Assembly (NCBI GenBank): GCA_948485625.1
Contig: CAOMRW010000007.1
Span: 10,117 to 74,116 of the forward strand
Origin: an uncultured Clostridia bacterium
GTDB lineage: Bacteria; Bacillota; Clostridia; TANB77; CAG-508
DNA length: 64,000 bases
Direction of reading: 5' to 3'
The position numbers and the translations under genes are program-made. Positions 38,342 through 47,294 of this stretch are shown piece by piece; position 1 is the first letter of the stretch; every line of letters starts with the position of its first letter. Under the pieces are notes generated by a model that searched no databases, had not been told where the DNA came from, and worked only from the letters and a program-made list of their open reading frames with translations.

Positions 38342-39307
38342 ATGAAAGAAAGTAAAAAACGATTATTAAGTAAAAAAATAATAATCATTGTAACAATAGT
38401 AATATTGGCATTATTAATAACAAAAAACCTAGTTTTAGCAGATACCATAAAACTAGAAGCAAAAGTTAGTAGTACTACAACAGAAGTAAAAGATGGACAA
38501 GAATTAACAATTACATTTAGCTTAGACAGATACAATGAAATAGAAAAAGGTATAAATGCTTATAAAGCAACTCTAGTATATGACAAAAACATTTTTGAAG
38601 AAGTATTAGAAAAAGATTTTAAAAGTCAAAATCATTGGGAAGAGCTGAAATATAATAAAGAAACAGGAGAATTTATAGCAATAAAAAAAGCTGGAAGTAT
38701 TTCACCAGAGGATATAGTAAAAATTGATTTAAAAGCAAAAAGAGAATTAAAAGCAGGAGAAACAGAAATAAAAATAACAGATGTAGTATCTTCAGAAGGA
38801 AAAGCAGATATACAAATAAATGAAGCAAAAGTAGAAGTAGATATAATAGAAGATCAAGAGGAAATACCAGATGTTCCTGAAAATCCAGACAAACCAGATA
38901 AAATAACTTCAAAAAAATATAAAATAGAACAAAACTATATATTAAGAATTTTACCAGAAACAACAATAAAGCAATTTAAAGAAAATGTAACAACAGATAA
39001 TGAAATGGTATTTATAGATGAATATGGAAACACAATGACAGATAATGAAATTATTTCAACAGGTGTAAAAATAAAAGTAGGAAAAACCTTACAATATACT
39101 TTAATAGTAATTGGAGATATAGACAAAGATGCAAAGATTACAATAAATGATATTGCAAAATTAAAATTACATCTTATAGAATCTGAAGTTTTAACAGGAA
39201 TGCAGCTAAAAGCAGCATATGTAGATAATGACAATGAAGTTACGATAAATGATTTGGCACAATTAAAGTTAGTTTTAATAGGATTATTAAATTTACAAAG
39301 TGAGTAA
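38342..39307 (+). CDS. secreted scaffoldin-like protein: cohesin domain, linker, beta module and C-terminal dockerin
   Basis: Signal peptide (LVLA/DT). Cohesin-like IKLEAKVSSTTTEVKDGQELTITFSL...GINAYKATLVYDKNIFEEV...GETEIKITDV. Pro/Asp linker. Dockerin repeats GDIDKDAKITINDIAKLKLHL and VDNDNEVTINDLAQLKLVL. Confidence 0.7.
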   Translation: MKESKKRLLSKKIIIIVTIVILALLITKNLVLADTIKLEAKVSSTTTEVKDGQELTITFSLDRYNEIEKGINAYKATLVYDKNIFEEVLEKDFKSQNHWEELKYNKETGEFIAIKKAGSISPEDIVKIDLKAKRELKAGETEIKITDVVSSEGKADIQINEAKVEVDIIEDQEEIPDVPENPDKPDKITSKKYKIEQNYILRILPETTIKQFKENVTTDNEMVFIDEYGNTMTDNEIISTGVKIKVGKTLQYTLIVIGDIDKDAKITINDIAKLKLHLIESEVLTGMQLKAAYVDNDNEVTINDLAQLKLVLIGLLNLQSE

Positions 39308-39359
39308 TTTATTTTAGAAATGAAAATAGAAAATATAAGAAATGGGGGATTAGTAGATT

Positions 39360-45300: not shown

Positions 45301-47294
45301 CTACAAGAATGAATATATCTGCTGGTTGGTCTTCTTGGGGAGGAATTACGGCAGCACAAGCTACTGCTATGAATTTAACATCATTAGAAGCTTTATATGA
45401 TAATAGAATTGTGCTAAGACCAAATAATGCTTGGGGAGTAAGTGTAAGAGGATTAGCTGTAATTAATGGACTTGGTTCAAATGATTATGGATTTGAATCC
45501 GTATGGGTAAACCGTTGGTTTTTAGGTCATTTAGATGGTGGATATGCTGATGCATTCTCTACTAAACGTAATTTCTTTGAAATGTTAGGTTATGCTGGAG
45601 TTGATGGATATGTTACTTATGGTAGTAGAGCATCTGCTAATGACTTAGATGCGATTAAGAAAATTACTAAAATGGTAACTGGTACTGAAATGGATTGGAA
45701 ACAATACAAAATGAGTAGATATGCAACAGTTGAAGAAAATATTAATAATAATAAATATATAGATGTTCAATACATGATAGACAGATTTACTGAAGCATTA
45801 ATAAATGATGCTAATAATGGAGATAGAAATATATCTCAAAGAACAAATCTTAGAAAGATATATTATCATTACTTAAAGAGTGCTACAAATGACTTTGTGG
45901 CTGACCCACTTGGAACAGATGTTGAAGTAACACATATACAAACAGCAGAAGAATTAGTAGAGAAAATTAATAATAAACCTTATGGCTACTATGTACTAGA
46001 TAATGACATTGATTTCTCAGAAATGACTACAAATGTAACTCAAACATTTATGGGTAGATTAGATGGTAATGGACATAAAATAATTGGTAATAAAATACCT
46101 ATATTTAATAAAATTAGATATGGATATGTTGGAAACTTAACATTAGAAAACACAGATATTCCAAGAACTAATACTACTTCAGGAGCTTTAGCTAATAAAA
46201 TAGAAGCTAGTACAGCAGAAAAAATAAATGTTACAGGATTAAAAATGTTCTTGGGTGCTAGAAATGATTTAGCTTTAATTGGTGGAGCTGTTAGTAATGT
46301 AATTACTAGAGAATGTACTGTAGAGCGTTTAGTTACAAAGATTTCAAACAAAACTGAATTTGTAGAAAAATTAAGTGCTGAACCAGGTGGATTATTTGAA
46401 TTAACAGGTGATATAGACTTTACTGGACATACAGCTACAACAAATACTATTATAGCAGGAACATTTACAGGAAAAATAGATGGAAAAGGATATACAATTT
46501 CAAATCTAAATAATAGTGCATTATTTGAACAATTTAATGGAACTGTAGAAAACTTAAATATAGAAAATTGTACAAATATAAAAGCAACGACAGACTTTGT
46601 TGGAATATTTGCATTAAAAAGTTCAGGCGCTAAATTTGCTAATATGAAATTTAATGATGTAACAGTACAAGGTAGAAACAATGTTGCAGTAGTAGTTGCA
46701 GTAGATAACAGTAATTCAACTTTTGATAAAATTAGTATCAAAAATGCTGATTTAAGTGGAAGTGGAGTATATATTGCAGGGCTTGTTGGTAGAAAATATG
46801 GAGGAACAGTAACAAATGTATATGTTGATGGTAATTTATCTGTTACAGCGATAGCAAATGCAGGAATTATAGGTTCAACAGAAACAAATGTTACAATATC
46901 AAATGTAATATCAGATGTAAATATTGAAAGAACATCAGATTCAGAAAATAAAAACAGAAAACAAAATGCAGGAATTGTTGGATTACCAATTAGTAATACA
47001 AGTCGTATAAAAAATTCATTAGCATTTGGAAATATGTCAGCATATACAGAAGATATGCTTCCTAGCAAATTTATGTATGCAGATGATGAAGCATTAATTA
47101 AAACAATGCTTACAAAATGTTATGAATATGCTGAAGCAACAGGAAAAAGCAATGTTACATCAAATACAAGTGGAAATTTAGATGCTATTTCTAAATCAGA
47201 CTTAAATAAAGAATTTTATAAAAATTTAGAATTTGATGAAGACATTTGGGATTTAGATAATCTTAATAGTAAAGGATGTCCAGAACTGAAATAA
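39360..47294 (+). CDS. 2644-aa secreted zinc metalloprotease (IgA1-protease/ZmpB-like, M26-type) with N-terminal dockerin, tandem beta-modules and GLUG repeats
   Basis: Signal anchor. Dockerin repeats NDDGEINYADVSLLQLHL and NNDGEITITDLNLLIKKI (about 39486-39650). A duplicated ~400-aa module set. GLUG-type repeats (VGGIVGDLNSGNIEECS, VAGIAGAMTGGTIKNCY, IGGILGHA). HEFEH zinc site at 44970-44984 (WTHEFEHALYD). Further GxLDGxGxxI repeats at the C-terminus. Confidence 0.75.
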   Translation: MKKHLKNNKSKLKYIFRISTITVLLLMVFLGVIYAVSNFSTKGELNDDGEINYADVSLLQLHLIHSKELPEDKLENADMNNDGEITITDLNLLIKKIEKTIEYEATVREIEVNNYYPNRNEEITISLDIDVTYSIDIKTITISGKEYETVKNEQNLYEVKLNVGDINGVKEYAIEKLTLINEEQIKVNKTVKVEVLKSQPQIENWILTEDLEKSELNISFDVVDSDEAITGTGEYIITEKKEETESSEETNYIQHGGVEVGTNKINVKVEENKKYQILVNVPYNLDTDTLEQEVDNTGRLTKDEELILIKDYEFQLSNIKIYKEEHEDETSEEFNLEENIIVKFDSTNGTEYLPQIAIINGKRYELTKENNTYTTFIDGFNNTGNQKITIEKVILDNGKEFEVNQETQVKIIKNAPTVARFRSHENTEEKNMDMLIFVKDKDKTITNLTVKLVDENDNEITSRDLTEHLKDENLNDSEEEDIKNTYYINTSINLENVQLPDKYKIKLIATYCLSENEENYTYTKTLLENEEESNPIVNIENVQISNKYPEKGENITLTYKIETNKENTNITHIRVNNLRCIATKNIDEQGNATYSVTLNAGETAGIVDLNTTDIIFEENTSVGVTNQVKIDVLKEKPTSEAFSQIDDINNRSVRLTANIVDPDKAFITGKAELVRNSDSEIVATKTFDAEHITFEINNIELGTQYTLIAKMTYDRDTNEIEEETNQNYVEDEIFRERPIQLIADYQLEINNIKTYNGEKETKYFERGQEVTVSFDSINQTEFYPVYAIINGKQYELEKVEQNYKTKIPVVSAFGPKTITIEKVILNNTKEIELTENNEIRVGILKLRPTITDFGYSENADNGNIDVSFKVNDTEDAITDGTIKVINENGDKIKEEKLTGNSNGISFEKGVCEEFEIQILADYDLDTNQITTGDNEYENQQLLKEGINISAERLIEVKDIITINLYSKEDPTAEVSSITEEKLSTLDNYIVKVIQKEMPVFYAKIKSYEITEDGNLDFILDYDNVIQYENGKKQNKLKVTYGKVNNGVAENKSIEALIAEIEANPDGDFTLTQDYDVSYLKTTNSSLITCEFRGTLNGNGHKIYNLGKPLFDTLESATIQNIQLEKVNLMDATSRGSIANIATNTTIKNIHIKNLNITTKVNQVGGIVGDLNSGNIEECSIRNYNLNTSGHIRVAGIAGAMTGGTIKNCYVQGEVHSTQTKDGNGIGGILGHALENTPVTIENCITKINYVWSGGGPRLNGAIIGLGNGTVATLKNNVSLSTGTGVYKVHGGNINPNASTNNYELEESELISNASGERVKKVSKDNITKEFFKDSAKFDENVWNLDDVSYDHMPTLKGNKQQENETETDTEEIDANLYIPEYDRIKNTPGFNTNKLIAYNNIQKLMPYYDAKYVVLDSVSISNTDTLNTKTIKHILPFADNKLVTYLTSKAYNGITSIKVVFTDYTVEQYEVNFEKLMGNIAIYKIPELNLSYAFGNYIVNENSEVVKKLADYIKSLDYNTVLEPLTAAADSRLYRDNYNNVIKNMAEEMALQILQNDECSILMLNNEILNKKIEKELIGTEKINKMIYAYNYYQRWYGFEIGGARVSDILLFEGKMYSNSMTFYNVLNEVLVGNLNPGGTDGFYTSCLKKYTGSSTVGYFLNYIIANIGGYEDVNDWFTEYFGARNILAEVSVDHLPEIGYRGWYQLTKKAKMILPVITLPNDCAYMISGPAHLQFGPSQLYHKDPQTEAGRTEVENKVNNHVKLVKSHFSTLADSFDYKKWNNYCIMVYDCTKIITGYKNTYFPGTNIVISTGPVYTQGKVGLEYPFFKNFSEVFGLWQPGGSSAGVGNTAGFLWFQARPGLTNFDTWTHEFEHALYDKIMLYQRGARVQLETLTEGNVQQYANWSENNLTQDVGPYYFNTSFYLNKEGNATQNLTPERINTREKLENYYKGQQNALDLLDYIEGKAFIRLTPEQQAKIATRMNISAGWSSWGGITAAQATAMNLTSLEALYDNRIVLRPNNAWGVSVRGLAVINGLGSNDYGFESVWVNRWFLGHLDGGYADAFSTKRNFFEMLGYAGVDGYVTYGSRASANDLDAIKKITKMVTGTEMDWKQYKMSRYATVEENINNNKYIDVQYMIDRFTEALINDANNGDRNISQRTNLRKIYYHYLKSATNDFVADPLGTDVEVTHIQTAEELVEKINNKPYGYYVLDNDIDFSEMTTNVTQTFMGRLDGNGHKIIGNKIPIFNKIRYGYVGNLTLENTDIPRTNTTSGALANKIEASTAEKINVTGLKMFLGARNDLALIGGAVSNVITRECTVERLVTKISNKTEFVEKLSAEPGGLFELTGDIDFTGHTATTNTIIAGTFTGKIDGKGYTISNLNNSALFEQFNGTVENLNIENCTNIKATTDFVGIFALKSSGAKFANMKFNDVTVQGRNNVAVVVAVDNSNSTFDKISIKNADLSGSGVYIAGLVGRKYGGTVTNVYVDGNLSVTAIANAGIIGSTETNVTISNVISDVNIERTSDSENKNRKQNAGIVGLPISNTSRIKNSLAFGNMSAYTEDMLPSKFMYADDEALIKTMLTKCYEYAEATGKSNVTSNTSGNLDAISKSDLNKEFYKNLEFDEDIWDLDNLNSKGCPELK

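Follow-up and report, generated by a model that had tools for sequence, protein, structure and literature searches.

A large-serine-recombinase element in a peroxiredoxin gene, carrying a cohesin-dockerin operon for a giant and probably surface-tethered M26 protease

What is a giant secreted protease with a dockerin at its N-terminus doing on a small mobile element, and what would hold it at the cell surface? The question is raised by a 64-kb stretch of DNA from an uncultured gut Clostridia bacterium (contig CAOMRW010000007.1, G+C about 25% throughout), which we call the window. A 13.1-kb element of the large-serine-recombinase type lies here inside the peroxiredoxin gene (prx), and the two-gene operon that it carries probably provides a surface-tethered giant zinc metalloprotease of the M26 family, to which the streptococcal Zmp and immunoglobulin A1 (IgA1) proteases belong. 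A first-pass annotation of the window had suggested a self-contained, surface-assembled protease system in this place. Part of that suggestion stands, and part of it has to be replaced.

The operon and its fused relatives

Both genes of the operon lie on the + strand, 52 nt apart. Their features are listed here, with the Pfam cutoff after each Pfam score.

38342-39307, + strand: gene 1, 321 aa; signal peptide at about aa 1-34 (VLA/DT), cohesin, X-like module, dockerin
38465-38821, + strand: cohesin of gene 1, aa 42-160; Pfam Cohesin 31.5 bits, cutoff 24.1
38903-39109, + strand: beta-rich X-like module of gene 1, aa 188-256; AlphaFold predicted local distance difference test (pLDDT) ~85
39113-39268, + strand: dockerin of gene 1 (DocA), aa 258-309; Pfam Dockerin_1 26.2 bits, cutoff 22.9
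39360-47294, + strand: gene 2, 2644 aa, M26 zinc metalloprotease; signal peptide or anchor at about aa 15-36
39492-39650, + strand: dockerin of gene 2 (DocB), aa 45-97, right after the N-terminal hydrophobic segment; Dockerin_1 39.9 bits, cutoff 22.9
aa 100-960 of gene 2, + strand: four double repeats of ~215 aa each, from windowed self-BLAST
aa 920-1360 of gene 2, + strand: M26_N beta-helix domain (copy used in self-comparison, aa 1033-1356)
aa 1380-2180 of gene 2, + strand: catalytic region
aa 2190-2644 of gene 2, + strand: two extra copies of an M26_N-like domain, from windowed self-comparison
44970-44984, + strand: HEFEH zinc motif, aa 1871-1875 (H1871, E1872, H1875)
45036-45038, + strand: E1893, candidate third ligand

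Most of what the first-pass annotation had read from these genes is borne out. The two co-oriented reading frames of 321 and 2644 aa are there, both the cohesin and dockerin families are found above their Pfam cutoffs, a dockerin follows the signal anchor of the protease directly, and the HEFEH motif is exactly where it had been placed. For the repeats described as GLUG-type, the Pfam GLUG model does not reach E 0.1 on gene 2; Peptidase_M26_N, with its two C-terminal repeats, accounts for that stretch. Self-BLAST of the whole protein gave nothing; the repeats emerged with windowed BLAST. Two things had been overlooked, the C-terminal dockerin of gene 1 and a frameshift in one of the recombinases described below.

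The proposed membership of gene 2 in the M26 (IgA1 protease/Zmp) family holds as well. Peptidase_M26_N matches in three stretches (131.9 bits, E 3e-38, cutoff 27.7), and in a sequence search of PDB entries aa 951-1983 align to the pneumococcal IgA1 protease (6XJB, 6XJA and 7JGJ, E 2e-27; also 7UVK and 7UVL), with the HEFEH motif inside the aligned stretch. None of H1871, E1872, H1875 and E1893 varies among 15 aligned homologues, which are 35-85% identical to the window protein. We regard the M26 homology, with its HExxH...E intact, as established. Among the NCBIfam models, aa 917-2090 align to ZmpB with 170 bits. Gene 2 as ZmpB proper was ruled out by the NCBIfam cutoffs; it represents a distinct M26 subfamily. 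By analogy with the studied members of the family, its substrates are likely to be host mucosal glycoproteins, e.g. IgA or mucin-type proteins.

The relatives of the protease are the best guide to what the pair does. They fall into 93 clusters at the 90% identity level, 26-96% identical to the window protease. The 78 genome loci that were recovered all come from uncultured gut metagenome-assembled genomes (MAGs) of mouse (MGBC), rabbit, chicken and human, labelled as Clostridia, Bacilli/'Tenericutes', Erysipelotrichaceae and similar. Cohesin and dockerin are both fused to the protease in 47 clusters, while 37 are split like the window; the other nine consist of five without either module, two with the cohesin only and two that are probably truncated calls. 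A fused protein runs from a signal peptide through cohesin, low-complexity linker, LPXTG motif, a first transmembrane segment (TM1), a Lys/Arg-rich loop, a second transmembrane segment (TM2), dockerin and repeats to the M26 domain. The LPXTG stands directly before TM1 in 21 of the fused clusters, and 26 have TM1 and TM2 without it. TM2 of the fused forms ends in a signal-peptidase-like site (TVYG/A). Ranked by identity, the fused clusters are interspersed with split ones.

The loci give the same picture. At 58 of the 59 N-terminal protease dockerins that could be evaluated, the same strand encodes a cohesin within 1.3 kb upstream, in one uninterrupted frame with the dockerin at 43 loci and as a separate open reading frame (ORF) at 15. 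The sole exception, locus L008, concerns a first M26 copy without a detectable upstream cohesin. Tandem paralogous giant M26 genes occur in L008 as well as in L007 and L011, and in the last of these both copies (695-12016 and 12213-20999) are cohesin-fused. Could the fused frames be artefacts of gene calling? We rejected this explanation, because 43 loci from independent assemblies have the uninterrupted frame and because the junction is ordered as LPXTG, TM1, Lys/Arg loop and TM2. The coupling of cohesin to dockerin is in this sense established, as is the domain content of the two genes.

A profile of the leader, from cohesin to dockerin, finds 250 clusters at 50% identity with E<=1e-30. An M26 catalytic domain is present in 31 of the 35 long hits, from which we conclude that the device is specific to an M26 subfamily. 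For the fused leader of P0154, modelled by AlphaFold from an alignment of 23 sequences, the predicted template-modelling score (pTM) is 0.68, cohesin and dockerin both have pLDDT >90, and TM1 and TM2 form a helical hairpin. The pTM and pLDDT of this model suggest a contact of cohesin and dockerin in cis. The solved structures closest to the cohesin of the model are non-cellulosomal ones from C. perfringens, 2VO8 (TM score 0.85) and 2JH2 (TM score 0.80).

Gene 1 belongs to the same world. Its cohesin is 40-46% identical to the cohesins of fused proteases, and in its own AlphaFold model the cohesin has pLDDT ~88 and the X module ~85. Among 234 homologues found, 119 of the 120 listed combine a cohesin with a dockerin. 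An exact match to the 321-aa sequence occurs on only four contigs, one of them from MAG GCA_950096955.1. Both repeats of the gene 1 and protease dockerins have DxDxD and DxNxDG loops. The recognition helices of DocA (IAKLKLHLIE and LAQLKLVLIG) differ from those of DocB (VSLLQLHLIH and LNLLIKKIEK). From the adjacency, the fusions and the model of the fused leader we propose that the cohesin of gene 1 and the dockerin of the protease form a functional pair, as the first-pass annotation had proposed; the 58 of 59 adjacencies and the 43 in-frame fusions argue for it.

Another view is that the two proteins are neighbours and not partners. DocB would then bind the cohesin of a chromosomal scaffoldin, and gene 1 would be a general adaptor for other dockerins of the host. 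Outside the element, at 11390-13078 on the + strand, there is a gene for a 562-aa secreted protein with an unassigned N-terminal region and a C-terminal type-I dockerin (Pfam 49.9 bits). The cohesin-dockerin repertoire of the host is therefore wider than the element, as a larger network of the host would require, and this view also profits from the model of the window's gene 1, which has neither a confident dockerin nor a confident domain arrangement. However, the dockerin at 11390-13078 has a different sequence pattern, exactly the same type of cohesin is fused to the same type of dockerin at 43 loci, cohesins adjoin 58 of 59 protease dockerins, and fused and split states interleave among close relatives. 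We consider the view of mere neighbours very improbable.

A proposed tether for the protease

If cohesin and dockerin are partners, several steps can be suggested by which the protease would reach and keep its place. In what would be the ancestral or majority form, a single polypeptide has the order signal peptide-cohesin-linker-LPXTG-TM1-Lys/Arg loop-TM2-dockerin-repeats-M26. Following the proposal made for the streptococcal Zmps, sortase would cut at the LPXTG and so fix the N-terminal cohesin piece to peptidoglycan, and a cut by signal peptidase behind TM2 would release the dockerin-protease. The N-terminal dockerin of the protease would then re-bind the wall-fixed cohesin. Extracellular positions for both modules would fit the Lys/Arg-rich loop that separates TM1 from TM2.

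The form in the window may have come about by fission of such a polyprotein between TM1 and TM2. The start of gene 2 would be the former TM2, now a signal peptide, followed by the dockerin. Gene 1 would have kept the cohesin and exchanged LPXTG-TM1 for a beta module and a second dockerin of the other type. With a cohesin and a dockerin of a second type, it would act as an adaptor. The tether would then have two tiers: the cohesin of an anchor protein would bind DocA of the adaptor, and the cohesin of the adaptor would bind DocB of the protease. The anchoring cohesin would be encoded elsewhere.

A candidate for such an arrangement is found at locus L005, where the protease is 93% identical to that of the window. 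The island (8977-25190) lies beside dcw genes (rsmH, an ftsL-like gene and one for a penicillin-binding protein) and contains, in this order, genes for a cohesin-dockerin adaptor, the protease, a 1262-aa protein, a cohesin-LPQTG anchor and one serine recombinase. The 1262-aa protein has transglutaminase-like and immunoglobulin (Ig) domains and ends in a cohesin-X-dockerin of the DocA type. The anchor has the form cohesin-(PGEDQK)n-LPQTG and is partly masked by N. This gene set supports the two-tier model. It also implies that the element in the window is probably not self-contained on its own, and here the first-pass annotation is not supported: gene 1 has no wall anchor, and its DocA needs another cohesin, of which none was found in the 64 kb.

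Could the protease be its own anchor? If its hydrophobic segment is left uncleaved, the protease would sit in the membrane, gene 1 would cross-link cohesin proteins or cells, and the pair would serve adhesion or aggregation instead of tethering of the protease. The 26 fused homologues that keep TM1 and TM2 without LPXTG fit such a role, and so does the lack of an anchor in the window. Cleavage after TM2 is itself a proposal even for the streptococcal Zmps (PMC3518915). Yet the segment ends in a plausible signal-peptidase site (VIYA/VS, and TVYG/A in the fused forms), and the island of L005 has a dedicated LPQTG cohesin beside the same module. We judge an uncleaved membrane anchor to be quite improbable.

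The tether that we prefer, a protease held non-covalently by a cohesin, has to be weighed against several findings that speak against it. The pairing of the cohesin with DocB in the window is read from adjacency and fusion and from the pTM and pLDDT of a fused model. The model of gene 1 itself has a pTM of 0.44 and a dockerin with pLDDT <50, and its domain arrangement is not confident. A search of the 64-kb window for a further cohesin, an LPXTG or S-layer homology (SLH) scaffoldin protein or a sortase motif found none, and the product of gene 1 itself lacks an LPXTG, an SLH domain and a membrane anchor at its C-terminus; for the genome of the window, the step that would complete the tether is thus hypothetical. 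Gene 2 has a single hydrophobic segment and no LPXTG, a layout other than the streptococcal one of LPXTG, two transmembrane segments and a second signal-peptidase site. Finally, the protease fails the equivalog cutoffs of ZmpA-D, with ZmpB the best at 170 vs 3000 bits. Scores so far below the NCBIfam Zmp cutoffs mean that the substrate cannot be transferred from the streptococcal enzymes.

The element, its target gene and its mobility

What carries the operon, and does it move? The serine-recombinase element spans 38106-51245, with a length of 13,148 bp, and lies within prx, both halves of which were located by a six-frame search for peroxiredoxin motifs.

37557-38105, - strand: 3' part of prx, starting at the (TPV)CTTE codons; the ORF called as 37557-38084 extends upstream to ...TPVCTTE, 38105
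51245-51397, - strand: 5' part of prx, MDYELMM...SHPGDFTPV, i.e. its missing N-terminus
38098-38105, unstranded: left copy of the crossover core (attL), ACAGGGGT, 8 bp; the element proper starts at 38106
51246-51253, unstranded: right copy of the core (attR), ACAGGGGT, 8 bp; the last element position is 51245
38230-38258, + strand: promoter-like site TTGAAA-17-TATAAT with TG extension, 84 nt 5' of gene 1; a consensus match with 11/12 matches
47426-47528, unstranded: perfect palindrome with 49-nt arms and 5-nt loop, ~130 nt past the protease stop; possible terminator
47659-47886, + strand: 75-aa ORF directly 5' of recombinase 1; candidate directionality factor or regulator
47929-49501, + strand: large serine recombinase 1 (SR1), with a +1 frameshift near 48883; ORFs 47929-48894 and 48935-49501
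49476-51143, + strand: large serine recombinase 2 (SR2), 555 aa, intact; Pfam Resolvase, Recombinase and Zn_ribbon_recom

Rejoined, the two parts of prx give a 230-aa protein that matches the peroxiredoxin 5OVQ over residues 12-216 (E 3e-60) with no gap at the junction, and the insertion is therefore exactly at the codon of the peroxidatic Cys. The reconstructed attP has dyad symmetry (16/25) with its centre within the core; it is predicted to contain …ACATATACAGGGGTTACTCTAT…, while the attB of the prx site is predicted to be TGTTGTACAAACAGGGGTAAAGTCTCCAGG. A large-serine-recombinase element is recognized by precise interruption of a target gene and a short core common to both junctions, and both are found here. 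We take its boundaries as established.

Beyond the two cargo genes the element holds only the palindrome, the 75-aa ORF and the two recombinases, and on this inventory the earlier statement that the pair is the sole cargo is correct. The promoter-like site named by the first-pass annotation is also present; it is the best of 87 such sites in 37900-51600, an AT-rich region in which they are not enriched (99.9 expected). SR1 has the Pfam domains Resolvase and Recombinase followed by half of Zn_ribbon_recom, since its frameshift falls within the zinc-ribbon domain; apart from this frameshift it is complete, and SR2 is complete throughout.

The palindrome is one of a family of long G+C-rich palindromes, each just 3' of a gene, with further copies at 28238-28313 and 37468-37542 (for the arms, 6 matches vs 0 expected by chance). 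One copy stands between an antiporter gene and prx, at the point where public contigs break. These palindromes look like a REP-like or terminator repeat of the host genome. Some neighbouring ORFs may be mentioned as well. Just past the 5' end of prx there are two on the + strand without a Pfam family, at 51581-51940 (119 aa) and 52027-52329 (100 aa, strongly Glu-rich). Far from the element, a 197-aa ORF at 9649-10242 on the - strand has a PemK/MazF-like toxin domain (E 2e-8) in its C-terminal half and exceeds the usual length of MazF.

Searches for the element or its empty site in other sources gave little. Megablast of 36000-52000 against the plasmids of PLSDB and the phages of INPHARED returned zero matches, so that the element does not correspond to any known plasmid or phage segment. 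An Rfam scan of 37500-52500 returned no RNA family. When the protein of the flanking antiporter gene was used to look for the empty site, every returned contig stopped at the palindromic repeat, and the 119-aa protein of the right flank has no record in the assembly index.

The relatives again say more. Locus L064 has a homologous element in the same site of prx. Its junctions are TACAGGGGT followed by TACTG and, at the other end, TTTGAAAAATAAATAGCTTGGGGT followed by AAAATC, and the inner ends are conserved. Both of its recombinases are intact and 71-72% identical to those of the window (72% for SR2), and its 75-aa ORF counterpart is in the same position (19698-19922, 45% identity). Its sole cargo is one fused cohesin-dockerin-M26 ORF, of which the protease part is only 36% identical to that of the window.

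The other target is yabG, the gene of a sporulation protease. In L029, L030 and L036 this gene is split by a fused protease together with two serine recombinases that are unrelated to those of the window (~25% identity). The break falls at about 113-119 of the Peptidase_U57 profile, with 1-113 upstream and 115/119-280 downstream. In L027 the recombinases are on the other side, and the element comes after an N-terminal fragment of yabG and before a full-length copy of the gene. All four are from uncultured mouse-gut 'Bacilli' MAGs.

L029, 8640-23149: yabG element
L030, 8629-24868: yabG element
L036, 144-14390: yabG element
L027, 4911-20424: yabG element

The survey of serine recombinases beside the module that had been called for finds one encoded within 3 kb downstream at 9 of 55 loci overall and upstream at 3 of 48. 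Recurrence of the cargo at other targets is established: the module is recurrently, not always, on serine-recombinase elements. The block 38214-47294 is also ~93% identical in L005 and L009, whose flanks differ. The copy in L009 (1922-13347, with 92.8% identity across 38214-47294) has a P-type ATPase gene on one side and a 3' remnant of prx on the other; another serine-recombinase element, which includes a Mob-like gene, interrupts this remnant at a different point. We rejected L009 as an excised or permuted form; it is a different context, and might be a mis-join of the MAG.

Whether the copy in the window is still mobile is less clear. Three points count against a mobile module. Comparison with the intact 514-aa SR1 homologue of L064 shows the frame of SR1 switching at ~48883; the exact 30-mer of attB has no match among JGI metagenome contigs; and about 80% of the related loci have no recombinase within 3 kb, which means that the module is not intrinsically mobile. 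The frameshift and the failure to find attB or attP make the current mobility of this copy uncertain. One may go further and regard the element as a decaying, immobile remnant, the module as a fixed chromosomal trait, and the disruption of prx as a loss-of-function lesion. SR1 is split in the matching MAG contig L001 too, and a repeat of the host type has settled inside the element. Against decay, SR2, the 75-aa ORF, both att junctions and the reading frame of prx are all intact, L064 keeps both recombinases intact at the same site, and errors of assembly may account for a frameshift in a MAG. We find such a remnant rather unlikely.

Alternatively, the interruption itself might be the function. 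Like skin, yin or gin, the element would then intervene in its host gene conditionally and restore prx or yabG by regulated excision, with the protease as a passenger. Insertion falls exactly on the codon of the catalytic Cys in prx and within the middle of yabG, and the conserved 75-aa ORF beside the recombinases could be the directionality factor. There is also a precedent: the yabG-intervening serine-recombinase element yin of C. botulinum, published as unique, excises as a circle during growth and sporulation (PMC10747680). But prx is not a sporulation gene, and the same cargo travels with unrelated pairs of recombinases (~25% identity), which points to selection on the cargo. A protease that is only a passenger is, in our opinion, unlikely.

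The presence of the module, as sole cargo, on prx-inserting and yabG-inserting elements suggests horizontal spread of the trait, perhaps with on/off switching. A broader reading joins all of this: a self-docking polyprotein that contains the non-covalent link missing from the model of the Zmps, has been split and re-fused repeatedly, and has repeatedly been packaged as the sole cargo of elements in prx and yabG. We put it forward tentatively, its chances being a little short of even. Such a polyprotein, in which a wall-linked cohesin and a dockerin-tagged M26 protease re-associate, may be a previously undescribed way of anchoring surface enzymes. If correct, a host-facing protease would be a portable, possibly switchable trait of gut Firmicutes, and the non-covalent link would be supplied that is absent from the long-standing model of the N-terminally sorted streptococcal Zmp/IgA1 proteases. 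A mobile trait of this kind would be relevant to mucosal immunity in the gut microbiota through degradation of IgA or mucus.

Comparison with known systems

Large-serine-recombinase elements that intervene in genes are known in skin (in sigK), SPbeta (in spsM), gin (in gerE) and yin (in yabG). The element in the window shares with them precise insertion within a gene, a short core repeat, recombinases at one end and a small conserved ORF beside these, and its relatives in L029, L030 and L036 interrupt yabG as yin does. It differs in having no phage genes, a single surface-protease module as cargo, prx as target and one frameshifted recombinase. The tandem pair of serine recombinases presumably recalls ccrA/ccrB of the staphylococcal cassette chromosome (SCC) type.

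With cellulosomes, amylosomes and the complexes of C. perfringens, the gut proteins have in common a type-I-like dockerin with two Ca-loop repeats and the cohesin beta-sandwich. They also share the principle of pairing a cohesin-X-dockerin adaptor with a cohesin-LPXTG anchor, as in L005. In contrast to those systems, the cargo is a single protease instead of carbohydrate-active enzymes or toxins, its dockerin is N-terminal, and the fused forms carry cohesin and dockerin in one polypeptide with a sortase signal and a transmembrane hairpin between them. If our reading holds, cohesin-dockerin biology would reach beyond the breakdown of carbohydrates to proteolysis directed at the host. As compact natural pairs of cohesin and dockerin that come with a sortase signal, the modules may also be of use for surface display.

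The closest comparison is with streptococci. There the M26 proteases, which cleave IgA1 and mucosal glycoproteins, serve in virulence and colonisation, and so far there is only a model of how they remain on the cell once their unusual N-terminal sorting is done. The streptococcal Zmps have a signal peptide, LPXTG, two transmembrane segments and a second signal-peptidase site, followed by repeats (PMC3518915), and their localisation depends on the LPXTG region at the N-terminus (PMC3518915, citing Bender and Weiser 2006). In the fused relatives from the gut the same atypical layout is found. The arrangement in the window is thus not a free invention but a variant of the streptococcal sorting device. 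The statement of the first-pass annotation that it had not seen such packaging described holds insofar as our search of the literature for cohesin or dockerin together with M26, IgA protease or zinc metalloprotease and sortase found nothing relevant; the base layout is known from the streptococcal Zmps.

ZmpA-D and the IgA1 protease also share with gene 2 a homologous N-domain and catalytic domain, HExxH...E, giant size and variable repeats before the protease. The gut forms differ from them in the cohesin before LPXTG and the dockerin after TM2, in the two extra C-terminal M26_N-like copies and the missing G5 domain, and in their hosts, uncultured Clostridia, Bacilli and Erysipelotrichaceae; the unit in the window differs further in being two genes and in the loss of LPXTG. 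Judged by these sequences, there is in uncultured gut bacteria a large unannotated M26 subfamily that appears to have kept the sorting layout and added an explicit cohesin-dockerin clasp to it. The clasp gives a directly testable anchoring mechanism for M26 proteases.

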